Source of the DNA: a virus
Taxonomy: Duplodnaviria; Caudoviricetes
Length of the DNA: 57,725 bases
Strand: one strand, 5' to 3'
IMG/VR virus record: IMGVR_UViG_3300034064_000874
Coordinates: 1-57,725 of that record
The notes under the pieces were generated by a model, which worked only from the letters and a program-made list of their open reading frames with translations, ran no database searches and had not been told where the DNA came from. Each line of letters starts with the position of its first letter. Positions within the stretch are counted from its first letter, which is position 1. The position numbers were made by a program, and so were the translations under genes. Below are positions 3,073 through 21,029 of this stretch, one piece after another.

Positions 3073-3456
3073 ATGAGCTTTGGTATGAGCGAGAAAAGTG
3101 ATGGCCCTGAAGTCACTTCAAAGGCTGAAGATCTTCTGCCGTGCCCATTCTGTGGAACCACAGAATTACTATCGGTTGAAGAAATCAGTCGAACCGACAG
3201 GGCCACATTCAATAAAAACGGAGTTCGTCGCAAACGCGCAGACATATCACATCGGGTTGTCTGCTACGAGTGTGGGGCTACGGGGCGTAGCAGCATATAT
3301 TTCCTAGAGCAAATAGAGCTTAGAGAGATAGATATTACTGACTCATTTGATACGGCAAAGCTCTATTGGAACACTCGAGCGCCAATCAGCAACCGAGTGT
3401 TTTCGCTGATAAATAAAATGATCGCTGACGCATTCAAGATTGTCGATGAGAGGTGA
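3073..3456 (+). CDS. Lar-like restriction alleviation zinc-finger protein
   Basis: LLPCPFCG...VVCYECGATG...WNTR pattern. Confidence 0.7.
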   Translation: MSFGMSEKSDGPEVTSKAEDLLPCPFCGTTELLSVEEISRTDRATFNKNGVRRKRADISHRVVCYECGATGRSSIYFLEQIELREIDITDSFDTAKLYWNTRAPISNRVFSLINKMIADAFKIVDER

Positions 3457-3504
3457 TGACACAAGGCCGCGTCAGGCTGTGCTAATAAGGAGAGCGACCA
3501 GGTA

Positions 3505-3993
3505 ATGAACGCGAAGAAGTTTGAAAGCACATACAACGGATTAACGTCAGTGGCCAAAAAAGTCTTTGACGCAACCCCGATTTCTGAGCCTTGGTCAATC
3601 AGCAACATTGTCACTGAGTTGGCGCGCAACGGATCTCATCAAGAACATCGCGTAGTGATGGGAGCCATGCGCGATTTGTGTGGGCGAAAGTTGGCTTATG
3701 AGGTGAGCGCTGGAATGTTCAGGCGCGTGAAAGTTGAGGGGAGGCCTACAAAACCATCGGAGATAAAAGTGGCAGAGCAAAGAACCAAAACAGCAGACGT
3801 AGTTTCAATCAAGCTGCCAGCAACCAAAAAAGGGCCAATGGAGCTTTTAGCCGAATTAGCCACAAAGGCACGACAGTTTGCAGAAGAACTCGATAACGCG
3901 GCGCTGGAGATTGATCAAGAGTTTCAGAACAGCGAAGCCAAGTCAGAAAAACTCAAGCAGCTACAGACACTGCTGAAAAACATCGCTGAATAA
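3505..3993 (+). CDS. Hypothetical protein (possible winged helix plus coiled coil)
   Basis: AAGGAG upstream; 162 aa. Confidence 0.7.
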   Translation: MNAKKFESTYNGLTSVAKKVFDATPISEPWSISNIVTELARNGSHQEHRVVMGAMRDLCGRKLAYEVSAGMFRRVKVEGRPTKPSEIKVAEQRTKTADVVSIKLPATKKGPMELLAELATKARQFAEELDNAALEIDQEFQNSEAKSEKLKQLQTLLKNIAE

Positions 3994-4004
3994 AATAGGT
4001 CAGT

Positions 4005-4274
4005 GTGATCAAGATTTTTGGACGGTGGTATATGGCAGAAAAACAAGAGCTGGTCACCTATGGCCAGAGATTCAATCGACTGACGGTCATTGGTGAAATT
4101 GATCGCTCTAATCCAAATGCGCCAAGGGTCGTCGTTAAGTGTGATTGCGGGGTAAAGAAGTCTGTCATCATCAATCAGATGAAAAACGGCAGAACAAAGA
4201 GCTGCGGATGCCTCAACAAGGAAAGGATCCGCGCAGTCAGCAATTTATCCTGGAATAGGAAACACAACCGATGA
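4005..4274 (+). CDS. Stand-alone Cys-rich domain like the N-terminus of phage HNH/AP2 endonucleases
   Basis: GQRFNRLTV...KCDCG...GRTKSCGC. Confidence 0.75.
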   Translation: MIKIFGRWYMAEKQELVTYGQRFNRLTVIGEIDRSNPNAPRVVVKCDCGVKKSVIINQMKNGRTKSCGCLNKERIRAVSNLSWNRKHNR

Positions 4275-5251
4275 TTGAAAAATTTATCCTGCATGGCGAC
4301 GCCACATACAACCTAGCGCCTTTTGCCTTCCCTTGGTCATTTGATATGGCTCAGAAGAGCATCGCAAACCACTGGACTCCACAGGAAATCGGCATGGGCC
4401 GCGACCGTGCCTGCTTTGAGCAGGAGTTAACCCAGGATGAACGCCATCTATTCACTTATGTGTTCGCCAGCTTAACCACAGCTGACTTTGCTGCAGCAGG
4501 AAATCTGGTTGAGCAGGTATTCAGCAAGCTGAAGGCCGCAGAACTCAGAATGTATGTCGGCCGACAGATTGCCGAAGAGACCATTCACTCGATGAGCTAT
4601 CAGCATATTCTCGAAGTGCTGAGCCTGGATCCTATTGACGTGTACACCTTGTATCGCAGGGTTCCAGAAATCAATGACTGGTTTGAATATTCGGCCAAGC
4701 AGAATTCATTTCAGCAGGGTGACGCCATCCTGCCGCTGATCTATTGGTATGGGCTGTATGAGGGCGTGTTCTTTATGTGCGCATTTGCAGCCATTTTGAG
4801 TCTCCAGCGCAGAAACTTGATGACCGGAACGGGTCAGCAAATTTCGTACATCATGCGTGATGAGGCCCTGCACACGGCATTCGGCATGAAACTGGTGAAT
4901 GAGATATTCAAGGAGACTGGAGGTCGTCCGACTCCAGAAACGGTCCACCAGTTATTTGCGCAGGCCATGGCCAAAATTGATGCCTGGACGGATCGCTGTA
5001 TACCCACCGTGCTTGGATATAACGCCGATCTTCATAAACAGCACTGCCGATACCTAGCAGACCGCAGGTTGCGCCAGCTTGGGTATGAGCCCATGTATCA
5101 CGTAGCAGAAGCGCTGCCGTGGCTGGACGAGCAAGTCAGCCTCAAGAAAGAAACCAATTTCTTTGAAGGCCGGGTCACCGAATATCAATCAGGAGTTGGG
5201 CTTGATTTTTCTGGCGCCGGCAGCCTGAACGAAATTACTAACTGGAAATAA
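4271..5251 (+). CDS. nrdB: Class I ribonucleotide reductase beta (R2) subunit
   Basis: NHWTPQEI; ligands D (TTAD), EETIH with radical Tyr (HSMSY), E (YEGVFF) and RDEALH; tail NFFEGRVTEYQ. Confidence 0.93.
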   Translation: MIEKFILHGDATYNLAPFAFPWSFDMAQKSIANHWTPQEIGMGRDRACFEQELTQDERHLFTYVFASLTTADFAAAGNLVEQVFSKLKAAELRMYVGRQIAEETIHSMSYQHILEVLSLDPIDVYTLYRRVPEINDWFEYSAKQNSFQQGDAILPLIYWYGLYEGVFFMCAFAAILSLQRRNLMTGTGQQISYIMRDEALHTAFGMKLVNEIFKETGGRPTPETVHQLFAQAMAKIDAWTDRCIPTVLGYNADLHKQHCRYLADRRLRQLGYEPMYHVAEALPWLDEQVSLKKETNFFEGRVTEYQSGVGLDFSGAGSLNEITNWK

Positions 5252-5511
5252 TGATGACCAACTTCGATGAACTGATCGGAAAAACCTACGGGAGATGGAC
5301 GGTGCTTGGCGGAGAGCGCAGGCAATCCACCCGCCCCAAGGCGGCCAGGCAGACCCTGTGCAAGTGCGAATGTGGCACCCGGCGCTGGGTCAGCGTCTCT
5401 GCCCTCAGGATCGGCAAGAGCACCAGCTGCGGCTGCAAGAGCAAAGAAGCTCACACCAAGATGCTGCAGCGCTATGCCCCGCTCCCCAGCTCATTCACGG
5501 AGGCCGCATGA
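5251..5511 (+). CDS. Second stand-alone Cys-rich HNH-N-terminus-like domain
   Basis: GKTYGRWTV...CKCECG...GKSTSCGC. Confidence 0.75.
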   Translation: MMTNFDELIGKTYGRWTVLGGERRQSTRPKAARQTLCKCECGTRRWVSVSALRIGKSTSCGCKSKEAHTKMLQRYAPLPSSFTEAA

Positions 5512-5690
5512 AAGTGGGTGAAGCATTTCCGGACGAAAACCTACGCGACGAGTTTGCCGCACTGGCATTAAAGGAGATCCTGCGGGCAGGGCTGCAAAAG
5601 CCATTGCTTTTCCTCGGCGATAAAACCGAGGTTGCCGAAGAAGCATACGGGTTTGCGGACGCGATGATGAAAGCGAGGCTGAAAAGATGA
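5508..5690 (+). CDS. Conserved small phage protein
   Basis: LRDEFAALA...AYGFADAMMKAR motif; GGAGG RBS. Confidence 0.7.
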   Translation: MKVGEAFPDENLRDEFAALALKEILRAGLQKPLLFLGDKTEVAEEAYGFADAMMKARLKR

Positions 5691-5896
5691 TTGACTGGTC
5701 AACCTTGGTCGCTAATTTCCAGAAAGCGCATATCGGAGTCGCTGATCTGGCCAATATAGCCGCCGTCACGCAGCGAGAGATCGCGGATCTGCTACACGGG
5801 AGAATCCTGGAGCCGTCATTTTCTTCTGGACTGAAGCTGCTCGACGCTCACCTTGACAGGTTTCCAGAGAAGCATCAGCAGCTGAAAGAGGAATAG
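5687..5896 (+). CDS. Cro-like HTH protein
   Basis: ADLANIAAVTQREIADLLHGRILEPSFSSGLKLL. Confidence 0.55.
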   Translation: MIDWSTLVANFQKAHIGVADLANIAAVTQREIADLLHGRILEPSFSSGLKLLDAHLDRFPEKHQQLKEE

Positions 5897-5898
5897 AC

Positions 5899-6054
5899 GT
5901 GGAATCAGTAATCGGAAAGTTATTGCCCTTTGTACAGTTTGCTTTCGGTGGTTACGTCGTAACAGTGGTGCTCGGCACCCTCTTCTTTGTGGCCGTCGCA
6001 GTATGGGTGGTCAAAGGGCTAAGGGATATCGACAAACCGTTTGACAAGTTTTGA
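5899..6054 (+). CDS. Small membrane protein (51 aa)
   Basis: Read manually: GTG start after GAGGA; MESVIGKLLPFVQFAFGGYVVTVVLGTLFFVAVAVWVVKGLRD... Confidence 0.65.
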   Translation: MESVIGKLLPFVQFAFGGYVVTVVLGTLFFVAVAVWVVKGLRDIDKPFDKF

Positions 6055-7630: not shown

Positions 7631-7895
7631 GGAAGTCGCTGAGTTTCTGCGCGTGTCACCAGCGACTGTGCGTGACTTGGCGAAGCGCGGAGAAATCCCC
7701 AGCGTTCGCCTTGGGGCGCTGTTTCGCTTTTCACGACCGGCCCTAATGCGGTATTTTGACGAGGCCGGGCAAGGCCAGGAGACAAGCACATGTCAGACCA
7801 TGGCATCTATAAAAGGCCGGACTCCCGCTACTGGTGGGCGGCCTACGCCGACGCCAGCGGCAAAGCGACTCGCCGCTCTACTGGGGTCCGAATAG
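7608..7895 (+). CDS. xis: Excisionase (MerR-type HTH)
   Basis: LLTPKEVAEFLRVSPATVRDLAKRGEIPSVRLG; immediately upstream of and overlapping int. Confidence 0.8.
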   Translation: MEPLLTPKEVAEFLRVSPATVRDLAKRGEIPSVRLGALFRFSRPALMRYFDEAGQGQETSTCQTMASIKGRTPATGGRPTPTPAAKRLAALLGSE

Positions 7896-8899
7896 ACCTA
7901 GACCCTCGGGGGACCGAGGCACGACGGGTGCGGCACGAATTCCTGATGGAAGTCGCGCCGCTTGAAGATAAACCCGCAGACCAATGGCTCTGGGAAGAGT
8001 TGGCAGAAGCCTATATCCCTGAGCTGAAGAAAGGAATCCGGCCCAGCACGTTCAATCGTTACAAGGCGGGCATGCGCGTCATGGCGGCGCGATTTTCAGG
8101 TACGCCAGCACTGACCACGGGGCCACAGGTAAAAGCCTGGATTCGTGACCAGGTGAATGCCGGGTATGCCGCCTCAACGATCAACATCAAGATCGCCATT
8201 ATGCAGGGCATGTATTCCTGGGCGATTAAAGAGTTGGACTGGGATATTCAGAATCCGTGGGCAAGCCGAAGTTTGTCGACGGACAATGAGCGCAATCGAT
8301 ACCTTTCGCAGGATGAAGTCGATCGGCTCATGGAATCCGCAAAGGAATGCGCCACGGCCTACTATCTGGTCGACTATCTGACGCTGGCATTGAATACCGG
8401 ATTCCGGCCGCAGGAGTTACTGAAAATGACCTGGGATAGGGTCAACCTGGAAGAGGGTACTTTTGTCTTTGAGAAACCCAAGGCAAAGAATGTGGCCGCC
8501 GATCAGAAGAATGGACGCTATTCCGTAATTCCGATCAACGCCAATGCCCGTCGCGCACTGATATCCCGAATGGAAACTCAGAAGCAGAACGCGGCTGCCA
8601 GTCGCTGGGTATTCAGTAATCGGGCAGGACACCGATTAAAGGATGTGGGATTTGCCTTCAGAGAGGCCGTAAAAAGAGCGGGACTGGAGGACGTTCAGCA
8701 GAGGGATCTGCGAAGGACGTTTGCTTCTCGGCTGGTGCAGGCAGAGGTGCCCCTGCAGGCAGTGTCAGAATTGCTCCGACACGCCGACATCAGGATCACC
8801 GATCGCGTGTATGCACACCTGTCGACGGAGCATTTGAAAGCCGCTGCGGCAGTGCTGGACACACCGCCGAAGCTGAAGGTGGTTTCACGTTCTAAGTGA
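7790..8899 (+). CDS. int: Tyrosine integrase
   Basis: LALNTGFRPQEL, RDLRRTFAS and LLRHADIRITDRVY motifs; N-terminal arm-binding-like region. Confidence 0.93.
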   Translation: MSDHGIYKRPDSRYWWAAYADASGKATRRSTGVRIDLDPRGTEARRVRHEFLMEVAPLEDKPADQWLWEELAEAYIPELKKGIRPSTFNRYKAGMRVMAARFSGTPALTTGPQVKAWIRDQVNAGYAASTINIKIAIMQGMYSWAIKELDWDIQNPWASRSLSTDNERNRYLSQDEVDRLMESAKECATAYYLVDYLTLALNTGFRPQELLKMTWDRVNLEEGTFVFEKPKAKNVAADQKNGRYSVIPINANARRALISRMETQKQNAAASRWVFSNRAGHRLKDVGFAFREAVKRAGLEDVQQRDLRRTFASRLVQAEVPLQAVSELLRHADIRITDRVYAHLSTEHLKAAAAVLDTPPKLKVVSRSK

Positions 8900-9167: not shown

Positions 9168-12100
9168 TTATCGGTTTACCTCCTTCACCCGATCATTCAG
9201 CACCTTCATCTGCGTCGCGATCTGACCATCCAGCGCCTTGATGGTCGCCTTGGGGGCATTCTGCGCGATGAGCTTGCGCTTCTTGGATCTCAGCTCAGAC
9301 ACGGCCCGCTCCATCTGATTACCGGCGGGCACCAGCGCGGCCAGCGGGTTTGAGCGCAGGAATCCAGCCACATCCTTGCCGTCCTTCGCCCGGCCTTTGA
9401 TCTCGCTCTCAAGCTCGTTGAGCCGGGTGAGATTGGCGTAGAAGCGATTCGATTCAGCCGACTGGCTTTTGACGTCACCGACGAACCGCCCTACCCCGAG
9501 CGGATACTTGTAGGGAGGGAGTTCCTCGCCGGTCATCCAGGCGGAAGCGGCCTGCTCGATCTTCATAACTTCCCTGCCCACGCCGCCCGTGGCCTGGCTG
9601 AACACGTAATCCAGCTGATCCGGCGTTGGGGAAAGCGCGCCCTGGGTATAGTCCGTGCCGCCCGTGATCCGGTTCAGTCCCCAGGCCAGTTGTTTCGACA
9701 GCCAGGACGCGGTGTCCTTGGTGCGAGTGAACCCTGGCGTGGGAGATGTTGAAGAGCGGTCCTTCTTGGCGATTTCCTTGCCGAATGAATCCCGGTTTTC
9801 TGACAATGCCACCAACGGATCCGCGAAAGTTGGAGCAATTGTCTGCACCGACCAGCCGGCCGATCCGATCGGGTTGAACGCATCGAAGAAGGATCCCAGC
9901 AAGCCGGCAATCTTCTTCCCGGCCCCATCCGGATTGATGGCGATCTCGGTCAGCACCCGCCCGGTATTGGGCAGCACATGAAAGCCCAGCGGCATGGGGA
10001 TGCTGACGTACTTGCCGTTCGGCATGGGGATGATGAAGTTGCGCTCGCGGAGGAATTCCGGTGGCTCGTCATCGTCATAGCCCGCCGCGGCCATGATGGC
10101 AGCCTGCACAACGCCCATGATCAGGCCGCCGGCGACAATCTTCTTCCCGGCCGGGCCTTTCACTGTTTCTGCGAGTCTGGCCGTGCCCTGAACCGCGGCA
10201 TTGAAGAACGCATACAGCGCTCCCGCCTGGCTGGCGATCTGGCCCTTGCGGTTGAAGTTGACGGTGAGCTCCTTGGCCATGACAGCCGCCTGCTCCTTGC
10301 TCATGCCGCTCTCGGTGCCGACCTTATAGGCCGACAGCCGCACGGCATTTTCCAGCGTCTCGTTGTAGTCGGATAGCCAGTCGAACAGGCCTCGGGTGAG
10401 TCGCTTGACCTTGCCGTCCTGGATGGCCTTGAGCTCCTTCTCCAGCGCCTTCATCCGATCATCCGCGGTGGCATACATATCCCGGTAACCGGTCTTGCCG
10501 CCGATGGACTGGAATTCTTCCCAGAGCTGCGACCATGCCGAGCCTTTCCTCGGCTTGCCCTTGCGGTCGGCCCGGAGATCGCCATAGATGCCCGCCATAG
10601 CCGGTGCGATCTTGGCTGCCACTTCCGTCTGCTTGCCGGCAATCGGTGTCGTGGAGAGGTTCAGCATCGCGCCTTGAGTATCGCGCAGCAGGTTGACGAC
10701 GCCGAAGATCGGGTTGTACTGGGTGTTGATGGAGCTGACGTAGCGCGTGATGTAACGGAACGCATTCAGCAGCCCGTGCATCTCTGGCGCATCCAGGTTC
10801 TTCAGCGACTGCGCCATCCGCACCGCCCGCTCGTTCTCGGTGGAGAAGAACAGGAATCGATCCTTGCCCTTGATCCGCACCGCCAACACGTTGTCGCGGT
10901 TTCTCAGTGCCGGATTGATCTTGTACTCGACCAGGCCGGTACGTGGATTGACGGAGGCCACAGTCGGCTCCTGGATGATTCCAGCCAGGTCTGACTCGAG
11001 CATGCCGTTATTGACCAGCTCCTGAGCGACCGAAGCCGGCTTCTTCACGGCATCCGGATTGACCGGATACCAGAACTCCGGATTCGGGTTCTGAATCGCC
11101 AGCCCATAGAGCGCCAGGCCGACCTTGTTTTTCTCGGCGCGTGTAATCGCTCGTTCACGCTGCATCATGACGTTGGCCAGGATATCGACCACGGCCTTGC
11201 CGGATCCAGTCCTGCGCTTGGAGGCGGGGCCCTTGGTGGAGAAGCCCTGCCCTGTGCCCATGCCGCGATTTAAGACATCTTCGCTCTCGCGCTGCAGCGG
11301 GACATAGTCAGCATAGGTCGCCTCCCAGGCGTCGATCGTGTCCTGGGTTTCCAGGCCGGAGTCCACCAGCAAGCGGCGAGTGCCGGCCGTGATGGCATCG
11401 ATCTGCGCAGCCATGGCCTCGAGGTCGGTGCGCTTCCCGGCGGGCAGATTGTTCAGGTAATCCTGAGCATCCTGGGTCAGTATCCCCGAGCCGCCGTCAG
11501 GGTAGGCTTCGTTGATGCGGGCGATCTGCTCATTGGCTTCCTTCGCATGGCGGTTGTGCAGGAATGTTTCCAGTTCGCCGATGGTGATGCCCCGGGTGGA
11601 CATGGCCCGCAGCAGCGGCTTGATCTCGTTCACCTTGAAATCATCCACGTCCTTCGCGGCCCGGCCGTGATAGAGGGTTTCCTTCAGGTAGGGATCCCAG
11701 GCATCAGACACCCGGCTGCCGAGCTTCTCGACGATCCGCTTGGTGTCGATGTGCTTGTCCTGCAGCAGGTAGACGTAGTTGTCCAGCTTGCTGTCGTCAG
11801 GCGTGGTCCAGGTGGCCAGCGCGGGCTGGTTGAGGACGTTGCGGCGGTTACTGAACAGCGGCATACCGTCCAGTGCTTTGTCCTGGAGAGCGGGCGTGAT
11901 ATCGAAGCCGGGTTGTGAGCTGTAGCGGCCTGATTCGGCTGCAGCGACTTGCTCGTCTGCCCAGGCTTGGGCTTGCTCGCGGGTGTCGAAGGTCTCGGCG
12001 CGTCTCGCCTCACCGGCGCCAACGCCGACCCGGAACCGGCCGCCGCTGGTCTCGTTGATCCGCACTACTAGGTCTTCCGGAGTGTCCGATAGGTCTTGCG

Positions 12101-15100
12101 CTGTGCTAATCGAGACCATCGACAGCCTCTGCCCGCCCAGCTTCTTCAGCACTTCATTGGCGGTCTGTGGAACGATCTGATCGTAGAATTTGCGCATGCC
12201 TTCGCCTCCGACTTTGAGGCCTTCGCCAGTAAAGCCGCCGGAATAAACGCCTCTGTCAATGCTTGACCGTATTTTGTCGCCAAGCTCCTTGCCTATGTAG
12301 TCGTCAACCTTGGTTGATGGCATGGTTTCATTGATGAGATAGTTGTTGTCAAACCCTTTGGCTTGCAGCAACACGTTATCCTTCTCTGTGTTTTCCCACG
12401 TTATGCCAGCAACCTGCTTGCTCAGGTCATACAAATCCGCATTCTGCTGCCCATTGGCAAAGGCGATCTTGTCGAAGCCGTTTTCACTTGCAAAGCGGAT
12501 GGCGCGCTTCAGTCCAAGCGACAGCCAGGACTTGGTGTCGGTGACGAAGGGGGCCTGTGGAATCGTGCCGTCAGTGCCGCCCAGGCCAGACTGATACAGC
12601 TCGATCAGTTGCTCATCTGACTGTCCGTAAGCCAAGTTGACTGAATAGCCACCTACCTGCTCGCCTGCCTCATTGCGTATGAAGACGGCGTCAGGGTCGG
12701 ATCGATCCACCGTAAATTGGCCGGATTTCTTGGTTGCGAATCCTCTTTTCTTCCCTTCCTGGCCCCAGTCCGATTGCAGCTCCTGGATAAACATCACCTT
12801 ATTGCCATCGGCATCGGTGCGCTCGTCGAAACGGAGGTGGGCTAGGACGTTCGGCTCGTTCCAGTGGGAGGATCGGTAGTTCTCTGCTTTCTTTTGCTCT
12901 CTTTCTGCCCGCGTGACTGCATTAGCGTCGTCGTCTTCCAGGTCAGAGAACCGACGGCCAAACATATCCTGCGCGATGTCGTTCAAATTACGAGGCTCTC
13001 GCTCTGGCAGCGTGATCAGCAGCTCCTGATAATTGGTGCCTCCAGGGATCGTGTAGCTGGCAAACTTTGGTGCAGCAGCGCCAACCTCTCCGCGCTCAGC
13101 CATCTCGTTTGCCAGTTCAGCAATACGGAAACGAGCTTGCGCTTGATCAGGCATACCATTCCGCTGGAAGCGCTGAGCGTCCTGCTCTGTTTCTCTTGCG
13201 ATCTCAAGCAGGCCATCAGTGGTGCTGGTGTCGCCGCCGTAATAGTCGACGTAGTCCTGCAGCTCTTTGGGTGGGGCCATCTTGCCGCCCTTCATCACCT
13301 CTTCCACGCGCACCCCGTTATCCGCCAGGTAGCTGGCAATATCGGCCTTGGTGAGCTTCTCTTTGGCATTGAGCGTCAGGTAATCCTCGATGCCGGTCCA
13401 AGCGATCTCGTCGTCCTTGATGCCCAGCTTGGCCTTATTACTGAACAGCCAGGCGCGCCACTGCGACCCGGGCATGGAGTTCATCTTGGATGACTCGAAG
13501 CCGCGAGCGAGCTGCGAGTAGAAGGTGGGATTTGGATTGCGCCGGTTGGAATAGAGGATTCCGTCCAGCGCGGGAGGGAGCTCGTTTAGTCCGACAGGAC
13601 CGCTGTCCCCTGCAGATTCAGCCAGTATTCCATCTCGGCCGCTTCCCCGCCTCTCGCCCGGCACTCGGCTGCCCGTCTCCCGTAGAAGGGATGCGAGGAG
13701 CGCCGCTCTTTTAAGCGTAGTGCGGCCCGGAGTCGACGGTCTTTCTCCTCCTGTGGGATTGGAGGTAGATTGTCCAAGTCTAGCCTTGGCCCCGGCCGAT
13801 AGATTTCTGAAGTCGTCATCTGTGAATACCTTCCCCGAGGAGATTTGTTCGAACTGCCTCGTCTTGAAATTGAATTGGATGTCATCTAGCCCTTCAACTC
13901 CAGCATACCCGGCCTCTCGATTTCCTTCAACGGCATTTCGATAGGATTTCTCGATCAATCGGTCCAGATTTCCGGCATCATCGCCCTCGATCCACTCGAT
14001 GTTTTGCAGTTCGTGCGGCTCCAGATGGCGCGTGGTTCCATACTTCAGTGCCGATGACAGCATCTGCTCGGTGCGACGAATCATGGCCTTCTTCGACAGC
14101 CCGTCAGGATCGCCTTTGAACACCAGCCCATTATTGTGAGCATAGGCGCCGATGATGCTATACAGCTCTGAGCCACGGCTCTTGCCAGACTCCAAGTTGG
14201 ATGCATCCACATAGAGCTTGTCGTCCGAGTCGGTTTTCACGAAAGCCGGGGATCCGTCTTCCATGATGATGGTCCAGTTGCGGCCATCGCGAGACGCCTT
14301 CACCTCGATATCCGGGTTAATGTCGTTGGCGATGTCCTGCATTGTCTTCGCATCTGACTTAGGCGACATGAACAACTGGTCAAACTTGGCCAGTTCGGTC
14401 AGCGTTTGCCTGGCACGGAGCTTGGTCGCCGTCGGGATGCGCCGGTTGCTGGCCGGGATGTCCACAGCAGCGCCTTTCTTCGCCCGGCTGGCCATCTCAT
14501 CCGGCCAGAACTTCTCGCTGGTGCCGGTGAATGAAGCCGCGTAGCGGTCGTAGAGGGATGGATTGATCGACTTGACGTACTCACCCCAGGCTTGCGGGGT
14601 TTTGCGCGACCAGTCCTTGCCCATGAGGCGAGCCAGGCGCTTGTTGGCGTTGGGCTCGGCGCGCTCACCGGGCTCAACCTGGGGACGGCCCTGGCCTTCA
14701 AATCGAACCGGGACTTTGTGATCGCCGATCAAAACCGCGGCACGTTGATTGCCGAAGTCAGCGACATAGCCATCGAAGCCGGCATCGATGACGGCGGATT
14801 CCATGTTGTTGTCGCGCTCTTCGGAATTGGCGCCCGTGATGTTCTCCGCAATGCTCAGCGGATCTGCATCAATATCGTAGAGATTCTTGAGCAGGACGGT
14901 GTGGGCATTGCCGCCGACACCCTGCTCAGGGGACACGCCTTGACCGGCGTTGATGTAGAAGTAGATTCGATTGGCGAGGCGCTGGTCAGCCGCGTTCTTG
15001 ACGCGCTCAGCCTCGGCACCGGTCGCCCCAGTGCCGTACTTGGATCCGTCTAGCTCTTTGCGTTCTGCGCTGGAGTAGTGGACGCCGACTGCGCGGACGC

Positions 15101-18100
15101 CGCCTCTTTTTGTTTGGCCATACCCCGGTCGGTCGCCCGCCGCAGAGCTGCTTCCAGCCCGTTCATTGCCGGGATCATTGGGTCGTCGGTTGCTGGCTGG
15201 GATGTCTGGTCCGACGGCTTCATCGAAGAGGCGGTCAGATTCGGCCTGTATGGCGTCAAAATCCCGCTTCCACCGAGGAATGTCTCGCCCGGCCTGGGAT
15301 CCCGCCGAGTCACTTTTGCCATATCGTGTGCCCTCTAAATAGCCTTCCAGCGTGTCAGGCTCGATCCAATCGGATCGGAACGTCGTGCTGGTGGTTTCAT
15401 ATTCAACATCAGATTCAATGCCACTGATAGCCGAATCTATGCCATCGTGAAAAGTCTGCTCGGCAACCTTCCCTTCAGAGAAGTTACCAAATACCAGAGA
15501 GCCGTCGCGGGTGGATACACCCTGCGCATCCGGATAACGCTGATTGATGACCCGGAAAAGATCAGCTTCTTCGGTGACCGAGAGCTTTTTACTCGGTATC
15601 ACCTTCACAAACTGGTTCTGGACGCCAGTCTGCTTGTCGTTCTCGTTGTAAGCGATCATAGCCTTCTGCTTCCACAGAAGACCCACGATTTTGGCAGCCT
15701 CTAGCTGCTGATCATAACTGACTGACTCGCCAAAGTGGATAGTGATGGACGGATTAACCAGTCCCTCAAATCCACCCATCGTGTACTCAAGGCGAAAGTC
15801 CGTGATGCCCAGCTTGTTGAGCACCTTTGGCAGCACGACATCACCGACCTTTCTGGTGACGCGCAGCTTGTCCTTGTAGGGGAGTCCGTCAAATTTAGCC
15901 GCCGCCCCCTGCGCACCCGCCTTTATGTAGTCCGGATTCGGCGCTAGTTCTGCGTTGACTCCGGAGTCTCGTCGGTTGCTGGCTGGGATGTCTGCTTGTC
16001 CAGCCCCGTTATCCTGTCGAACTCTTCCGCCGACACTATCATCTCCGGCGTCCAGCTTTCGTTGTCCGCCTCGAAATCCCGTTGCGGGTCCGATGGTTCC
16101 ACGGAAATCCCCTTTAGAAGCTCGGAGATTTCTTGCTGCGTTCGCGTAATCTGGGGCTTCATCTGGCTCATAATCTTCACCTTTATCTTCTTTGACCTTG
16201 GCGGCCTCGTACAGTCTCTTCTTTTCTGGATACCAGATCAATGCCTGGAAATCCGCCATAGTCAGCCGGTCGTGTACTTCCTGCAGGCGAGTCAGGGCAT
16301 CATTAAAGACGGCTCGGATGAACTTGCGCTGATTGACCCCTTTGGGCGCATCATTTAGGCCTTGCAGCTGGCGAACCAGGTTATTGCCTGCCTTGCGTAT
16401 TTCAGCACCCATATTGGTTCTGGCTTGCCCGCTGCGTGGCTCACCATAAATCTCAATGAACTGCTTAGGGTCGCGCTCACCAATTGGGTTCATGGCGTCG
16501 CGGTTTTCCGGTTTTTGACTGGCTCCGACAATCAGAGCGGCAGTACCGTCCAGGTCGCCTAACAGTAGCTTTCCGCCAATGATCTCTTGTAGGGAGCGAC
16601 GCTCTTGCGCGTCCAGCATACGAATGAGGGAATCCAGTGATTGGCGCTTTGCCTTAATAGCTGCTGGGTCGATGGTTACCAGGTCGCCAGTCCAGCGGTT
16701 CCATGTCCGCATGAACCAGCGATCCATGGTCAACTGCTCGTAGTGCCCGTAGAGGTTGGAGAAGAACCCGTTACCGATTTTTGGCCCCAAGATAATGGAA
16801 CCGTACACCATCTCGTCTTTTCCTTCGCCAGAAATGGTCTTGCCCGTTAACTGCTCGATCTCTCTGACTGGGCGCAGTGTGGTCATGAAGGACTGCAGCC
16901 TGTCATAACCCCACTTGTCCATGTACTCGTTGTAGGTCGCCAAGCCTTCATCGATCTTGGCTTTGGCCGGGCCTTCGCCGATATTCTCCGGCATGCGTCC
17001 GTGGACTCGCAGGTGCGCATACACCTTGTCGGCCAACTCAAAGTTACGGTCAACCTTCATGCCGTTGGAGGTGACAGCCAGCGCCCAGATAAACCCGAAT
17101 CTGGCCTGCGGATCATCGCGCAACTCAAGGTAGATCTCGCCCATGATATCCATGGCGACCGTGAGCTTTCCGTCGTACCAGCCGATGGCGCTGGAGTTCG
17201 TCTTGAGGGCTTCCTGAGCCTCTCGTATGGCAATGCCGACCAAGTAATCGTAGGTGGACTGATCCTTGGCCTTGAGGTCGACACCGGCGGCCTTCGCTAC
17301 CCTATTGATGCGGCGATCTAGCTCAACCCTCAAATCCCTGCCGGTTTTCCACTGGCGCGACTTGGCCAGATCCACTGCGGCATTGATGAAGTTGATTTCT
17401 TCCAGGGTGGCCGGGATGACCCGCTTATTGGTCGGCTCGCTGTCAAACCCCTTGGCGGCCAGGGTGTTTTTCTCAGCGCGGCGGTCTGCCTTTTCACGCT
17501 CCTTTTCGGCCTTTTGCCGCTCACGTTCTTGAGCTTTCTCTGCTTTCTCTTCTTCCGTCAGGCGTTTCTTGCTCTCCAGAATCTCCGGCCCGTCGAACTC
17601 AGGTTCAGTGCCGGTCTGCTGGGCGTTAGCGTACTGAGCGAGAGCCTCTGTGACGGCGTTACGGGCGCGCTGTAGATCCTTCTTGGCAATGGCGGCTTCG
17701 GCGTTGAATCCGGCGCCCTGGAGCTTCTGAATCAGCCCACTCATGAACCCATCCACGGCCCGCAGGAACTTGCCGCCGGAACCCGGGCGCTGCTTGTTCA
17801 TGGCCACGGCAACACGGAACAGGGCGGTGGGCTTGTGGATCACGTCCGACACAAAGTCGGAAACCCACTCTTCCTCATTGCGGCTGGGATCGGTGAGACC
17901 TGGATAGGCGCTGATCGTGTCGCCTTTCTTCGGAAGCTCCTGCTCGTAGTTGCGTTCACCCAGGTGCATGGACACGCCGATCGGGCTGTACACCTCGCGC
18001 AGCGCCGTCACCATGTCGGCATAGATCTTGGGTGCCCGACGACGCAGGCCATGGGTCAGCTCATGAGCGACGACCCGAGAGAAGGTATCTTGAGAATTCT

Positions 18101-21029
18101 TGTTGAGGAGGATTACATCGGGCCGGGATCCGATGATGGCGCCGTCTCGGTCGAGCTCGGTGGTTCCGTCTTCGTGCTCGATGTAGACGACACGGTGGCC
18201 GAATACCTGCGCAATAGACTCAGCAATTCGTCGTTGCACAAATCCGCGACGGGGCAGCGCGGTTGCGGTTTTGATCTTCTGGAGAAGTACGCCTCCACTA
18301 TCTCCAGCTCCTCCGGCGTTAAGGGTGTCAACTGCTGTGTTGTATTCGTCGATGACATCTTGGTCGTTCGCCTTCGTGTTGCTGGCCGCAATATCGGATT
18401 GTACGCCCTGGCTTGCAAGATACTGCTCCGGCGTAATCAGCGGCTGGCCCAGCTGCTTCTGCACGGCGTTCTGGCCGCGCAGCTCACTCTCCTGCTTGGC
18501 GGTCAGTTGAGTCGGCAAAGATTTGTTGCCAGCTGGCCTGGATACACCCTTGATCGTCCGTCTAACCGGAAGCGGCAGCTGATCCCAGTTCTGACTTTTG
18601 ATCTCCGGCATCTCGAGCTCTTCAGCCCAGACGGATTTACCGGCTTCGTCCAGGGTGTCCCAGTAGTCCTTGGTGTTCTGCTCGGGCTGACGCTCTAGTG
18701 CAGGCTCGCTGACAGGATTGTTGGCCGTTGATGCAGTGGTAGTTGCTCCGACATTTCCATCAGCTGATCCACCCTCAAGTCGATCTCGTCCATCAACAGT
18801 GCCAATTCCAGCTCCTCCTTCTGCTCCCTGAGCGAGAGCACTTCCTGCTGCAGTTCCTGGAGCAATTTCTCCAGTGCCTGCCGTGGGATCATTGGCATTG
18901 GGATTCTCCGTGGTGCCGGCGCTTACCTGCCCGCCGGCTGGCATAGGAATAGATCCGGGCGCTTGGCCCGGAAGGTTTAGCAGCCCTTCTTGCCCGGACG
19001 TCCCGGCATTGGCTTCTTGGTTTTGCCCTTCATTGGTGGTCTCCTGAGTGGCGGTGGTAGTTTCTCGATCAGCATTGAGCTGATCCAGGGCTTCAAACGC
19101 ATCCACGTCGGTCGGATGCTGGCTGATGACGGTCCCGGTGTTGGTATCAACAATCTGGAACTCGTTGTCAGAGACTTGCCGGATCTCCGGCGCGATATCG
19201 GTTACCTGCGGCCCTTGGGCGGCATCGACGGCTTGGGATTGCCCTTCTTGGATGGGGGCTTGGGTTGTTCCTGTTGGTTCTGCAGGCGCCGTACTTGCGC
19301 CAGCGGGATCTTGGGCATTGGTGTCTCCTGGAATGCCGGTGGATGAAATGGAGGTGTCTTCGGCTTGGTCTCGCTCAGCCGGCATCGTCGCGGCCGCAGC
19401 AAGACGCCGAGCCATGATGTCGCGGGCCTGCTTGGCGCGCTCAATTCCAGAGAGTCCTGGGTCGGTCTCGGTCTTCAGAATCTCCATGAACATGGGATTC
19501 TTGTTGTAGAGCGACTCGATCTTGTTTTCGGATGACCAGCGTTTGGCCGCCACATCAGCTGCCTTTCCAAGCAGCACCTGGCCGCCGGTTCCGACCAACG
19601 TGGCAACAGCCGTCTGTATCGCTGCAGACGGACGCTCGGCCATGAATTCCTTGGCGGTCTTGTCTGGGTTCAGCTCAACCCACTTATCGAGATCCTGCAG
19701 GAATGTGGCGGCTTGCTCGCCCAGCATTTCTGGAACCAGCTGCTTGGCAAAGGTTTTCCAGAGGGCGTCATTGGCCTTCAAGCTGCCCAGCAACTTGCCC
19801 ATCGGGATAGTCTCAGTGCCGACCTCGATAATGCCCTGGGTTGTCCCGTAGAGTGCAGCTCGCTCCGGGCTTTTGCCGGCATCACGCGCTTCTCCATAGG
19901 ACTGACCACCCGACATGACGCCCATCGGGGCCAGCGCCATCAGCGGATTGCCAGTGACAACAGCCGCCGGGATCGTCATCAGATTCTGGGTGATCGACTG
20001 CATACCGGAGTACACGCCAGATGCCAGATCGCTGTCGGCCTGTGGGGTGAGTCGCTCGGCAATCGTCTTTTGCCCCTGACGCGCCTTACTGTAGGTCTGC
20101 GCCAGTTGCTGGACCGGATCCTGCACACCAAAAGCGTTGAATACGGGTCCGGTCAGATATTTGTTTGTGGCTTCGGCGCCGGCTTGCAAAGTACCAAGGA
20201 CGCCTTCACTGCCCCGATAAACACCGGACAGCGCAGCGGATCCAAGGTTCTTGGCGGCCTGGCCCGGGTTGTTGACCACGCTTTTCGGGTCCATCACCTG
20301 GTTGTAGGCGAAGTCCTCCACCGCATTGCCGGCGTCGCTGATTAGGTTCTTGCCGCGCTGTAGCAGGGACGGCGGTTGTGCGGGAGGCTCGGCGGGCGCT
20401 GAGACAGCTTCCTGCTGGCTCGAAAATGGAACCTCTGCGGCATCTGCTTCGGTGAAGATCTTCATGCCGCCATCAGAAGGCGAGGCATCCGACGTAACAC
20501 CACCATTCCACGCCGCCAGAATCTGCCGAGCATTTCGCCGACGCGCTCCTAAAGCAGGGACTCCAGGACGCTCGAAACCAGACATGTCGCCTGGTTGCCC
20601 CATGAAATTGGTGGTCGCCTGATCAAGGCTGCCAGACCGCTTCAGCGTCTCGAAAGCCGGCCTCTCGCTGGTCAATAACTCCTGCTTGAGGAACTGAAAG
20701 TTGGCATCATCAGACGCTGGGTCGAGATTGTTCGCCTTAACAAACTCCTCAAACTGACGACGACGCGGACCTGTCCACTGGGCCCATCCAAATCCACCAC
20801 GACCACTGACAGGCTTGATCTCCTGCATCTGCTTGAATCCACCGGACTCATGCCACAGGTTGCCCATAACCCCGGCCGCTTGCTCTGGAGTCATCCGCAA
20901 ATCCGGATCATCGATCAGGCGCTGAACACCCGACAGGGCAATATCCATGCTCGAACGGCGCTCGGGCTTGGCATCAGCCAAAGAGGGACCGGCCGATACC
21001 TGATTACCGTCTTCGTCGAATGCCAACAT
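9168..21029 (-). CDS. Giant polyvalent internal virion/ejection protein (3953 aa): tail-lysozyme, zincin, HhH-like, ART-like, GNAT-like and LPD38-like domains
   Basis: AAGVMGNLWHESGG...GWAQWT lysozyme; HELTH; GPKIG...TMDRW...QALIW; HYS...YFY; G.RGSELY; C-terminal IPMPLG...FNPIG...SPTPDQLDY; last gene of the virion operon. Confidence 0.88.
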   Translation of the reverse strand: MLAFDEDGNQVSAGPSLADAKPERRSSMDIALSGVQRLIDDPDLRMTPEQAAGVMGNLWHESGGFKQMQEIKPVSGRGGFGWAQWTGPRRRQFEEFVKANNLDPASDDANFQFLKQELLTSERPAFETLKRSGSLDQATTNFMGQPGDMSGFERPGVPALGARRRNARQILAAWNGGVTSDASPSDGGMKIFTEADAAEVPFSSQQEAVSAPAEPPAQPPSLLQRGKNLISDAGNAVEDFAYNQVMDPKSVVNNPGQAAKNLGSAALSGVYRGSEGVLGTLQAGAEATNKYLTGPVFNAFGVQDPVQQLAQTYSKARQGQKTIAERLTPQADSDLASGVYSGMQSITQNLMTIPAAVVTGNPLMALAPMGVMSGGQSYGEARDAGKSPERAALYGTTQGIIEVGTETIPMGKLLGSLKANDALWKTFAKQLVPEMLGEQAATFLQDLDKWVELNPDKTAKEFMAERPSAAIQTAVATLVGTGGQVLLGKAADVAAKRWSSENKIESLYNKNPMFMEILKTETDPGLSGIERAKQARDIMARRLAAAATMPAERDQAEDTSISSTGIPGDTNAQDPAGASTAPAEPTGTTQAPIQEGQSQAVDAAQGPQVTDIAPEIRQVSDNEFQIVDTNTGTVISQHPTDVDAFEALDQLNADRETTTATQETTNEGQNQEANAGTSGQEGLLNLPGQAPGSIPMPAGGQVSAGTTENPNANDPTAGTGEIAPGTAAGSALAQGAEGGAGIGTVDGRDRLEGGSADGNVGATTTASTANNPVSEPALERQPEQNTKDYWDTLDEAGKSVWAEELEMPEIKSQNWDQLPLPVRRTIKGVSRPAGNKSLPTQLTAKQESELRGQNAVQKQLGQPLITPEQYLASQGVQSDIAASNTKANDQDVIDEYNTAVDTLNAGGAGDSGGVLLQKIKTATALPRRGFVQRRIAESIAQVFGHRVVYIEHEDGTTELDRDGAIIGSRPDVILLNKNSQDTFSRVVAHELTHGLRRRAPKIYADMVTALREVYSPIGVSMHLGERNYEQELPKKGDTISAYPGLTDPSRNEEEWVSDFVSDVIHKPTALFRVAVAMNKQRPGSGGKFLRAVDGFMSGLIQKLQGAGFNAEAAIAKKDLQRARNAVTEALAQYANAQQTGTEPEFDGPEILESKKRLTEEEKAEKAQERERQKAEKEREKADRRAEKNTLAAKGFDSEPTNKRVIPATLEEINFINAAVDLAKSRQWKTGRDLRVELDRRINRVAKAAGVDLKAKDQSTYDYLVGIAIREAQEALKTNSSAIGWYDGKLTVAMDIMGEIYLELRDDPQARFGFIWALAVTSNGMKVDRNFELADKVYAHLRVHGRMPENIGEGPAKAKIDEGLATYNEYMDKWGYDRLQSFMTTLRPVREIEQLTGKTISGEGKDEMVYGSIILGPKIGNGFFSNLYGHYEQLTMDRWFMRTWNRWTGDLVTIDPAAIKAKRQSLDSLIRMLDAQERRSLQEIIGGKLLLGDLDGTAALIVGASQKPENRDAMNPIGERDPKQFIEIYGEPRSGQARTNMGAEIRKAGNNLVRQLQGLNDAPKGVNQRKFIRAVFNDALTRLQEVHDRLTMADFQALIWYPEKKRLYEAAKVKEDKGEDYEPDEAPDYANAARNLRASKGDFRGTIGPATGFRGGQRKLDAGDDSVGGRVRQDNGAGQADIPASNRRDSGVNAELAPNPDYIKAGAQGAAAKFDGLPYKDKLRVTRKVGDVVLPKVLNKLGITDFRLEYTMGGFEGLVNPSITIHFGESVSYDQQLEAAKIVGLLWKQKAMIAYNENDKQTGVQNQFVKVIPSKKLSVTEEADLFRVINQRYPDAQGVSTRDGSLVFGNFSEGKVAEQTFHDGIDSAISGIESDVEYETTSTTFRSDWIEPDTLEGYLEGTRYGKSDSAGSQAGRDIPRWKRDFDAIQAESDRLFDEAVGPDIPASNRRPNDPGNERAGSSSAAGDRPGYGQTKRGGVRAVGVHYSSAERKELDGSKYGTGATGAEAERVKNAADQRLANRIYFYINAGQGVSPEQGVGGNAHTVLLKNLYDIDADPLSIAENITGANSEERDNNMESAVIDAGFDGYVADFGNQRAAVLIGDHKVPVRFEGQGRPQVEPGERAEPNANKRLARLMGKDWSRKTPQAWGEYVKSINPSLYDRYAASFTGTSEKFWPDEMASRAKKGAAVDIPASNRRIPTATKLRARQTLTELAKFDQLFMSPKSDAKTMQDIANDINPDIEVKASRDGRNWTIIMEDGSPAFVKTDSDDKLYVDASNLESGKSRGSELYSIIGAYAHNNGLVFKGDPDGLSKKAMIRRTEQMLSSALKYGTTRHLEPHELQNIEWIEGDDAGNLDRLIEKSYRNAVEGNREAGYAGVEGLDDIQFNFKTRQFEQISSGKVFTDDDFRNLSAGAKARLGQSTSNPTGGERPSTPGRTTLKRAALLASLLRETGSRVPGERRGSGRDGILAESAGDSGPVGLNELPPALDGILYSNRRNPNPTFYSQLARGFESSKMNSMPGSQWRAWLFSNKAKLGIKDDEIAWTGIEDYLTLNAKEKLTKADIASYLADNGVRVEEVMKGGKMAPPKELQDYVDYYGGDTSTTDGLLEIARETEQDAQRFQRNGMPDQAQARFRIAELANEMAERGEVGAAAPKFASYTIPGGTNYQELLITLPEREPRNLNDIAQDMFGRRFSDLEDDDANAVTRAEREQKKAENYRSSHWNEPNVLAHLRFDERTDADGNKVMFIQELQSDWGQEGKKRGFATKKSGQFTVDRSDPDAVFIRNEAGEQVGGYSVNLAYGQSDEQLIELYQSGLGGTDGTIPQAPFVTDTKSWLSLGLKRAIRFASENGFDKIAFANGQQNADLYDLSKQVAGITWENTEKDNVLLQAKGFDNNYLINETMPSTKVDDYIGKELGDKIRSSIDRGVYSGGFTGEGLKVGGEGMRKFYDQIVPQTANEVLKKLGGQRLSMVSISTAQDLSDTPEDLVVRINETSGGRFRVGVGAGEARRAETFDTREQAQAWADEQVAAAESGRYSSQPGFDITPALQDKALDGMPLFSNRRNVLNQPALATWTTPDDSKLDNYVYLLQDKHIDTKRIVEKLGSRVSDAWDPYLKETLYHGRAAKDVDDFKVNEIKPLLRAMSTRGITIGELETFLHNRHAKEANEQIARINEAYPDGGSGILTQDAQDYLNNLPAGKRTDLEAMAAQIDAITAGTRRLLVDSGLETQDTIDAWEATYADYVPLQRESEDVLNRGMGTGQGFSTKGPASKRRTGSGKAVVDILANVMMQRERAITRAEKNKVGLALYGLAIQNPNPEFWYPVNPDAVKKPASVAQELVNNGMLESDLAGIIQEPTVASVNPRTGLVEYKINPALRNRDNVLAVRIKGKDRFLFFSTENERAVRMAQSLKNLDAPEMHGLLNAFRYITRYVSSINTQYNPIFGVVNLLRDTQGAMLNLSTTPIAGKQTEVAAKIAPAMAGIYGDLRADRKGKPRKGSAWSQLWEEFQSIGGKTGYRDMYATADDRMKALEKELKAIQDGKVKRLTRGLFDWLSDYNETLENAVRLSAYKVGTESGMSKEQAAVMAKELTVNFNRKGQIASQAGALYAFFNAAVQGTARLAETVKGPAGKKIVAGGLIMGVVQAAIMAAAGYDDDEPPEFLRERNFIIPMPNGKYVSIPMPLGFHVLPNTGRVLTEIAINPDGAGKKIAGLLGSFFDAFNPIGSAGWSVQTIAPTFADPLVALSENRDSFGKEIAKKDRSSTSPTPGFTRTKDTASWLSKQLAWGLNRITGGTDYTQGALSPTPDQLDYVFSQATGGVGREVMKIEQAASAWMTGEELPPYKYPLGVGRFVGDVKSQSAESNRFYANLTRLNELESEIKGRAKDGKDVAGFLRSNPLAALVPAGNQMERAVSELRSKKRKLIAQNAPKATIKALDGQIATQMKVLNDRVKEVNR
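13586..13819 (-). CDS. Nested +1-frame ORF (77 aa, MTTSEIYRPGPRLDLDNLPPIPQEEKDRRLRAALRLK...)
   Basis: GGAAGGT about 8 nt before ATG; protein-like sequence over a G/R-rich linker of the host gene. Confidence 0.5.
   Translation of the reverse strand: MTTSEIYRPGPRLDLDNLPPIPQEEKDRRLRAALRLKERRSSHPFYGRRAAECRARGGEAAEMEYWLNLQGTAVLSD
15050..15322 (-). CDS. Nested +1-frame ORF (90 aa, MAKVTRRDPRPGETFLGG...)
   Basis: AGAGGG RBS about 8 nt before ATG. Confidence 0.55.
   Translation of the reverse strand: MAKVTRRDPRPGETFLGGSGILTPYRPNLTASSMKPSDQTSQPATDDPMIPAMNGLEAALRRATDRGMAKQKEAASAQSASTTPAQNAKS
15944..16171 (-). CDS. Nested +1-frame acidic ORF (75 aa, MSQMKPQITRTQQEISELLKG...)
   Basis: AAGGTG 6 nt before ATG; acidic, helical-looking sequence. 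Confidence 0.5.
   Translation of the reverse strand: MSQMKPQITRTQQEISELLKGISVEPSDPQRDFEADNESWTPEMIVSAEEFDRITGLDKQTSQPATDETPESTQN
18113..18358 (-). CDS. Nested +1-frame ORF (81 aa, MSSTNTTQQLTPLTPEELEIVEAYFSRR...)
   Basis: Protein-like N-terminal half; weak RBS (AAGG 12 nt upstream). Confidence 0.4.
   Translation of the reverse strand: MSSTNTTQQLTPLTPEELEIVEAYFSRRSKPQPRCPVADLCNDELLSLLRRYSATVSSTSSTKTEPPSSTETAPSSDPGPM
18695..18898 (-). CDS. Nested +1-frame acidic coiled-coil ORF (67 aa, MPMIPRQALEKLLQELQQE...)
   Basis: GGAG-N7-ATG; strong heptad pattern. Confidence 0.62.
   Translation of the reverse strand: MPMIPRQALEKLLQELQQEVLSLREQKEELELALLMDEIDLRVDQLMEMSEQLPLHQRPTILSASLH
18977..19033 (-). 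CDS. Nested +1-frame basic peptide MKGKTKKPMPGRPGKKGC
   Basis: CAGGAG-N7-ATG; TAA stop. Confidence 0.55.
   Translation of the reverse strand: MKGKTKKPMPGRPGKKGC
19202..19318 (-). CDS. Nested +1-frame basic peptide MPKIPLAQVRRLQNQQEQPKPPSKKGNPKPSMPPKGRR
   Basis: CAGGAG-N6-ATG. Confidence 0.55.
   Translation of the reverse strand: MPKIPLAQVRRLQNQQEQPKPPSKKGNPKPSMPPKGRR

Follow-up and report, generated by a model that had tools for sequence, protein, structure and literature searches.

Small genes that lie wholly within a larger gene, on the same strand and in its +1 frame, are known from phage lambda, where the products of the nested pair, the Rz and Rz1 spanins, are functional partners. Overprinted genes are also found in small viruses, as with gene E within gene D of phiX174 and gene L of MS2. 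In polymorphic toxin-immunity cassettes and in the type II GNAT pairs TacT/TacA and AtaT/AtaR, a modular effector is accompanied by a small cognate gene of ~80-100 amino acids (aa); the immunity genes of polymorphic toxins are typically separate and located downstream, not within the toxin domain. The large polyvalent proteins of phages and conjugative elements have been proposed to accompany the invading DNA and then to be cut into functional units (accessible text of PMC5512222). Here we describe a small open reading frame (ORF) nested in the region encoding an LPD37 domain, within a giant gene of the phage record IMGVR_UViG_3300034064_000874. The whole of this record (57,725 bases, completeness rating 98%) is referred to as the window. 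The original prediction for this locus was of a GNAT-like effector module and a cognate inhibitor, encoded by the nested ORF at its 3' end, packaged as one exchangeable cassette and protecting the producing cell during virion assembly. Comparison of sequences across the LPD37 family indicates that the nested ORF is almost certainly a real, translated overlapping gene; we propose more tentatively that its product may be a partner of LPD37.

The predicted 77-codon ORF is present, on the same strand as the giant gene and in its +1 frame. It had been thought to start at the end of the domain; the ATG is in fact at domain residue 207 of 300, inside the last quarter, and the ORF overlaps two confidently modelled LPD37 helices (residues 207-222 and 239-254) as well as a disordered tail. 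As predicted, it stops just before the next linker, 35 nucleotides (nt) ahead of the SNRR codons. The encoded protein is hydrophilic, with a grand average of hydropathy (GRAVY) of -0.93. Judged by this window alone, the ORF is unexceptional. The giant gene holds nine ATG-started alternative-frame ORFs of at least 77 aa, or 31 when GTG and TTG starts are included, and the probability of no +1 stop at this locus was 0.137 by synonymous resampling, a procedure that leaves the protein sequences and the codon usage of every gene unchanged. These figures are compatible with a frame that is open by chance in GC-rich DNA, or that is maintained by a constraint on the nucleic acid such as RNA structure, with no protein being made. 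The significance of the nested ORF depends entirely on comparative data across the family.

The LPD37 domain was detected with HMMER in 865 representative proteins at E<=1e-3, mostly of 2000-6000 aa (1.84 billion representatives searched; the 865 are clusters at 50% identity). Pattern scans were seeded on conserved main-frame motifs at domain residues ~100-145, outside the nested region, and these yielded 160 viral and metagenome loci. Of these, 143 were unique, with 132 distinct domain sequences, 28-41% identity to the query and GC contents of 0.41-0.70. An open +1 stretch of at least 77 codons was present at the same place in 140 of the 143 unique loci. Among the 132 distinct homologs, +1 stop density was 0.00-0.04 per 100 codons across domain residues 200-279 (~9,400 codons) and 1.2-8.1 per 100 codons elsewhere in LPD37, and no comparable dip occurred in the +2 or antisense frames. 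Synonymous resampling predicted 213.0 +1 stops in residues 198-282, where 31 were observed; in control regions of equal length the observed and expected numbers were 354 and 382.6, and 437 and 479.1. In 43 representatives that were mutually <50% identical outside the nested region (GC 0.41 to 0.67), we observed a single +1 stop against 75.9 expected, 42 of the 43 were stop-free, and the controls matched expectation. A second retrieval by scanning bacterial genomes gave 45 loci, mostly from Pseudomonadota. The 43 of these counted for stops again contained one +1 stop (55.5 expected), and 42 were stop-free; this replication is not fully independent, because some lineages recur in both sets. A hidden Markov model of the nested family matched 207 of 214 sources (duplicates included), and LPD37 domains carried the nested ORF in every architecture sampled. 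The alternative frame is therefore open more often than would be expected from codon usage and the main-frame protein. It had been suggested that the pairing would fall if homologous domains lacked the nested ORF; this was checked, and in all three counts the ORF was kept at nearly every locus.

Constraint on the +1 peptide was also visible at individual codons, with the parts of these genes outside LPD37 (~170,000 codons) as background. Residue 250 is variously Thr, Ser or Ala (52, 37 and 35 cases), yet 117 of the 130 codons at this position are NCC (background 0.35), placing Pro in the +1 frame. At Arg244, 115 of 126 codons are AGA or CGA, both rare (background 0.11), giving +1 Glu, and at Leu/Val252, 95 of 110 are NTA (background 0.10), giving +1 Tyr. 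At Leu272 the codon is NTG in 114 of 121 cases and the following base is G in 123 of 126, giving +1 Trp; the residue after Leu272 varies between Ala, Gly, Asp and Glu despite this near-fixed first base. Column identity in the +1 frame equals or exceeds that of the main frame over residues 241-280, and in the rest of LPD37 is approximately half the main-frame value. In 16 independent close pairs, the non-synonymous share in the +1 frame was 0.62 in the conserved block and 0.84 in control regions, the +2-frame share stayed at 0.89 in the conserved block, and differences per site were 0.095 in the block and 0.134 in the control. These values are those of purifying selection on the +1 amino acids. 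An alignment of 121 nested ORFs (A2) gave the family consensus RL.E.LS..PFYA..A...G..YW..L..S, preceded by a variable N-terminal part.

At the level of sequence, these comparisons show dual coding in the 3' quarter of the segment that encodes LPD37, with both frames evidently under purifying selection. A chance open frame, or a constraint acting on the nucleic acid, is scarcely credible as an explanation for this pattern. The frame is open at GC contents from 0.41 to 0.67, the constraint is specific to the +1 Pro, Trp, Tyr and Glu, operates through rare main-frame codons and leaves the +2 frame unaffected, and in a foreign sequence context (described below) similarity ends at the +1 stop codon. 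Separately, we noted that in two public-run relatives, 7-8% diverged, all 38 differences listed in 13516-13965 are in 13733-13965 (~16% of sites), and among the 40 rows listed, with a further 85 outside the listing, none is in 13516-13732; on these rows a hypervariable stretch abuts an apparently invariant dual-coding stretch.

Sequence features support a model in which the nested protein would be made by internal initiation at an ATG preceded by a Shine-Dalgarno (SD)-like sequence, in this window ATG 13819 or ATG 13885. The latter directly follows a +1-frame TAG stop. Across the family, 264 +1 ATGs were found in the start zone compared with 174.8 expected, and SD-like runs of at least 4 nt precede 32% of 121 nested starts compared with 12% of 4646 control +1 ATGs. 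Relatives in the protein databases that are 77-79 aa long begin at the homologous Met. A different possibility is that programmed +1 frameshifting or transcriptional slippage ends the giant protein early, as an LPD37 core with the small domain as its C-terminus. This would be in keeping with P0164, a protein described below that has the same domain at the C-terminus of an enzyme, and with Erwinia phage Pavtok, in which the 90-codon open +1 stretch contains no ATG, so that non-ATG starts or other mechanisms are possible. However, no conserved slippery heptamer or homopolymer was found. In 131 loci, X_XXY_YYZ heptamers were not enriched (20, compared with 31 in the control), homopolymer runs of at least 7 were absent, and runs of at least 6 occurred in five loci (nine in the control); a frame-0 stop or other known +1 stimulator was likewise lacking. 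Because ATGs and SD-like sequences are enriched and slippery or homopolymer signals are absent, internal initiation is favoured, and a trans-frame C-terminus appears very unlikely.

The nested sequence was also found outside giant LPD37 proteins. P0164, a database protein of 319 aa, contains a complete N-formylglutamate amidohydrolase (FGase) domain (residues 8-220, E 3.3e-39), and its last ~77 residues are 80% identical to the nested protein of the window, ending at the same stop. No FGase was found in the window phage, scans of viral contigs with the LPD37 domain, P0159 and P0164 as single proteins gave no match, and neither did a scan of genome contigs with P0164. A 1992-nt contig from a public run (record 19, run X8) matches the window solely at 13588-13776, which corresponds to the nested ORF as far as its stop codon, and both of its flanks are unlike the window. 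Since the match ends at the +1 stop and the flanks are foreign, it is the +1 ORF, rather than the LPD37 frame, that forms the unit of similarity. This contig is probably a second instance of the fusion between FGase and the nested protein. Its 30-letter upstream overhang, translated by hand, resembles the P0164 linker.

In 7 of the 143 loci LPD37 stood alone in a gene of ~300 aa, and all seven kept the nested ORF. The neighbours of these genes are a resolvase and transposase, a caspase-like peptidase, or glyQ. In one locus (L086) the stand-alone LPD37 gene with its nested ORF is between a serine resolvase and a DDE transposase (L086:812-1474, 3827-5119), and in another (L101) it is directly downstream of a caspase-like Peptidase_C14 gene (L101:20-733, 785-1675). 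The occurrence of LPD37 and the nested ORF both in giants of 2000-6000 aa and in these short genes fits the exchangeable cassette that had been proposed. Further rearrangements were seen in individual loci. In some phages the nested-ORF region is repeated in tandem just past the end of the LPD37 gene, the duplicate being in a shifted frame, and in L064 a further copy of LPD37, also containing a nested ORF, is present (regions concerned: L064 ~3141-4116 and ~5256-5939; L161 ~3108-4028). One subgroup of nested ORFs is 140-160 aa long, with two YW-containing units.

The nested gene has been missed by annotation. The cultured Erwinia phages PEp14, Pavtok and Stean are annotated with the giant coding sequence only, and all three have a 90-codon open +1 stretch with the consensus motif. 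A search of 5.8 billion clustered proteins with the A2 profile retrieved 13 short hypothetical proteins of 52-109 aa, five of which are 74-88% identical to the nested protein of the window; one subgroup of the 13 proved to be nested too (L162). In the closest relatives, P0001 (92%) and P0002 (71%), the nested ORFs are known solely as database proteins. Among the 121 nested proteins, no Pfam or PHROG family was matched by more than one member, and no antitoxin Pfam family was matched. Comparison of the A2 profile with PDB sequences gave only E values of 0.4 or worse, and the ESM Atlas gave no usable match for two members of the family. In a literature search, no paper was found that mentions LPD37 by name or describes a gene within it; 'LPD37' was not found in the main text of PMC5512222, the supplements of which were outside the search and may say more.

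We modelled LPD37 with AlphaFold2 from an alignment of 20 sequences (A1). This model had a predicted local distance difference test score (pLDDT) of 85.2 and a predicted template modelling score (pTM) of 0.85; a single-sequence run gave a pLDDT of 40.1. The model consists of a four-stranded sheet followed by a helix-strand-helix unit, with residues 258-281 disordered (pLDDT under 50). The strings quoted in the original prediction, KSRGSELY, GDPDGLS and RRTEQMLSSAL, are all present between the third and fourth SNRR motifs. No GNAT Pfam family was matched at E<=0.1 in the whole giant protein, and the A1 profile gave 0 matches to PDB sequences at E<=10. The match of the model in BFVD was solely to another LPD-containing phage protein. 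VIA-align gave Z 5.8 with GNA1 (root-mean-square deviation (rmsd) 4.8, 102 aligned) and Z 6.1 with HAT1 (rmsd 3.8, 122 aligned), values tied with those of metallo-beta-lactamases (5.8-6.1) and KA1 domains and all under the noise level of the tool, ~7-8. Approximately half of the 50 weak structural neighbours were GNAT acetyltransferases. The core fold of GNAT enzymes is a mixed sheet containing a beta4-alpha3-beta5-alpha4 unit, and the acetyl-CoA pyrophosphate is bound by a loop, Q/R-x-x-G-x-G/A, located ahead of helix alpha3. LPD37 has a conserved Gly85...Gly89 loop preceding helix 89-102, with a spacing that is not canonical for GNAT. Asp110, Arg121, Arg122 and His142 are invariant in the domain. 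The GNAT-like reading of the model is therefore a reasonable lead, and as a label it was not established, with no GNAT Pfam family and a best Z tied with unrelated folds. What holds of the original prediction as a whole is that the ORF is conserved with the domain and that the pair behaves as a cassette.

The giant late mRNA is read in frame 0 through the last two LPD37 helices and the disordered tail, and the same bases in the +1 frame almost certainly encode a separate hydrophilic protein of ~77-99 aa. We propose that this protein would bind LPD37 as its cognate partner; synthesised in the producer cell beside the virion-packaged polyvalent protein, it would most likely regulate or neutralise LPD37 in the manner of an antidote. 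The partner reading is suggested because the nested gene is co-transcribed with LPD37 and always inherited with it. We place the probability that the nested protein is an LPD37 partner of any kind at approximately 0.45; that it is a specific inhibitor or immunity protein of LPD37 is rather unlikely.

Several observations weigh against this explanation. The overlap itself forces the two to co-occur, and linkage therefore says nothing on function or partnership. The nested ORF persists beside truncated LPD37 in L138 and L133, and in P0164 its product is fused to an unrelated FGase-family enzyme without LPD37; it can therefore act without intact LPD37 in cis. These copies without intact LPD37 are as compatible with orphan immunity as with a function independent of LPD37. 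The position of the start codon is not conserved, with the nearest ATGs scattered over domain residues 186-211 and none at all in the open stretch of Pavtok, and among public runs recorded as RNA none carries the stretch (two runs that do carry it, X5 and X7, are at most presumed to be RNA). Isoelectric points in the nested family range from 5.0 to 9.8, and one member has an ESM Atlas model of low confidence. With respect to LPD37 itself, a Foldseek search of the model against the PDB gave nothing at E<=0.001, and the potentially enzymatic LPDs listed in the accessible text of PMC5512222 do not include LPD37.

Several of the same observations can be accommodated if the nested gene is real and simply a passenger, overprinted on a tolerant part of LPD37 (the last helix and the disordered linker) and having its own unrelated function. 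The roles suggested would be those of an anti-defence, host-takeover or assembly factor, which would stay embedded for no other reason than having arisen at that site. The conserved C-terminal half of the nested protein overlies the disordered and poorly conserved main-frame stretch at residues 258-281, and a passenger would be expected to persist beside truncated LPD37 and in fusion with FGase, as this gene does. Such a pattern is usual for viral overprinted accessory genes, according to the accessible text of PMC8227390. However, no free-standing, unfused copy was found in a word-indexed search of limited sensitivity, which gave 13 short hits, one subgroup of them placed in its genomic context (L162, nested), and one longer hit, and the ORF was retained in every sampled LPD37 architecture. 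We consider a passenger possible, though we lean away from it.

A strict toxin-immunity pair, as first envisaged, is a special case of the partnership proposed above and would require LPD37 to be a toxic GNAT-like effector and the nested protein to be an immunity protein or antitoxin that protects the producer during assembly. This would account for the near-universal linkage, for the stand-alone two-gene units in mobile or conflict contexts (resolvase/transposase, caspase-like peptidase) and for the copies without intact LPD37, which would be orphan immunity genes, and it would draw on the GNAT acetyltransferases among the weak structural neighbours. Against this are the Pfam and fold comparisons above, and the small gene is wholly inside the LPD37 coding sequence at every locus examined, not adjacent to it. 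Overall we regard this strict form as improbable. A related and equally doubtful scenario is that LPD37 is a virion-delivered enzymatic effector with a dedicated +1 antidote that recombination could not separate from it, copies without a working LPD37 being orphan immunity. If this were true, a resident prophage or host with orphan copies would resist LPD37 injected by superinfecting relatives, the amidohydrolase of the FGase fusion might also reverse the modification made by LPD37, and the pair would be the first effector and immunity protein in overlapping frames within virion-delivered polyvalent proteins.

The features of the locus are collected in Table 1. The LPD37 match scores 182.1 bits against a gathering cut-off of 27 and covers profile positions 2-242 of 243, in the setting of a giant multi-domain phage protein. 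SNRR is found at aa 1684, 1946, 2194, 2494 and 3060 of the giant protein (5000 residue shuffles gave a mean of 0.046 and a maximum of 2), in the contexts DIPASNRR (three times), GILYSNRR and MPLFSNRR, with a module spacing of ~245-890 aa. At the C-terminal boundary of LPD37, pairwise identity among ~128 homologs is 0.85 at Tyr296 and 0.58 at Ser297. In distant homologs the C-terminal end of LPD37 has the form I-[LF]-Y-S-[RKN], and FS[RK]-type motifs are found ahead of the domain. In 150 homologous proteins the count of [FYW]S[RKN] was 460, compared with 243 in residue shuffles; the motif is located at most 90 aa after LPD37 in 35 of 129 proteins (10% expected) and at most 65 aa before it in 45 of 132 (8% expected). 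SNRR and [FYW]S[RKN]-type motifs may be candidate processing sites.

Table 1. Features of the window at and around the LPD37 module; coordinates are nucleotide positions in the window unless given as aa.
Feature	Coordinates	Strand	Basis or remark
Nested ORF, 77 aa + stop	13586..13819	-	+1 frame of giant gene
Nested ORF, longer ATG version, stop-to-stop, 99 aa	13885..13586	-	Start of the 77-aa ORF is its Met23
Conserved core of nested protein, residues 35-71	13607..13717	-	A2; Pro44 and Trp66 nearly invariant
SD-like GGGGAAGG, 9 nt upstream of ATG 13819	13829..13836	-	Sequence
SD-like GAAGGG, 4 nt upstream of ATG 13885	13890..13895	-	Sequence
LPD37 module, third to fourth SNRR, aa 2198-2497	13539..14438	-	Sequence and Pfam
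LPD37 Pfam match proper	13677-14405	-	PF18853
SNRR (DIPASNRR), N-terminal module boundary	14439..14450	-	Reads SNTR in the 81%-identical relative P0001
SNRR (GILYSNRR), C-terminal module boundary	13539..13550	-	Tyr-Ser kept family-wide as I-[LF]-Y-S-[RKN]
Five SNRR motifs	11841-11852, 13539-13550, 14439-14450, 15183-15194, 15969-15980	-	Sequence
Giant gene, 3953-aa ORF, final gene of late structural operon	9168..21029	-	ORF list
Phage_lysozyme2 (phage tail lysozyme)	aa 46-171 of giant protein		Pfam
LPD37	aa 2209-2451 of giant protein		Pfam PF18853, E 1.7e-53
LPD38	aa 3653-3844 of giant protein		Pfam
Integrase	7790-8899		

Upstream of the giant gene, the minus-strand late operon encodes terminase, portal, major head protein, internal virion protein and tail protein. 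The C-terminal 870 aa of the giant protein match PHROG 14770, and no phage record was matched by the giant gene in megablast. The giant protein is a large polyvalent virion protein, as that term is used by Iyer et al. 2017 (accessible text of PMC5512222). A single HExxH motif (HELTH; aa 989-993, window 18051-18065, minus strand) is located in a region without a Pfam match at E<=0.1, and could be a candidate metallopeptidase site for the self-processing proposed for polyvalent proteins. Antisense frame 0 of 9168-21029 has 49 stops in 3953 codons and contains ORFs of up to 287 aa (17835-18698), an openness that may simply reflect GC-rich codon structure.

In relation to the large polyvalent proteins and family PF18853 (accessible text of PMC5512222), the domain in the window is a clear LPD37 member, beside LPD38 and a lysozyme domain. 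In nearly all of the phages, prophages and mobile elements sampled, three cultured phages among them, LPD37 (865 clusters) carries what is almost certainly a second gene missed by annotation. The nested proteins are a new family of small proteins associated with virion-delivered polyvalent proteins and would provide the first functional handle on LPD37, a domain without a known role. As a case of same-strand dual coding in large dsDNA phages, of which genome compression is not an obvious driver, the locus is unusually clean and ancient.

As with the overprinted genes of phiX174 (E/D) and MS2 (L), the +1 frame of an existing gene encodes another protein, and synonymous freedom is reduced in the overlap; the difference is that the hosts here are large dsDNA phages and bacterial mobile elements without genome-size pressure, and that the overlap has been kept across lineages with ~30% identity in the host domain. 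The toxin-immunity cassettes and the TacT/TacA and AtaT/AtaR pairs likewise show tight linkage, mobility between architectures and copies without an effector, but here the small gene is embedded in the coding sequence of the putative effector and is not adjacent to it. With Rz/Rz1 the locus shares the nesting, the same strand and the +1 frame. In contrast to the spanin genes, the small protein of the window is hydrophilic, the host gene encodes a putative virion effector domain and is not a lysis gene, and the partnership of the two products is one that we infer.

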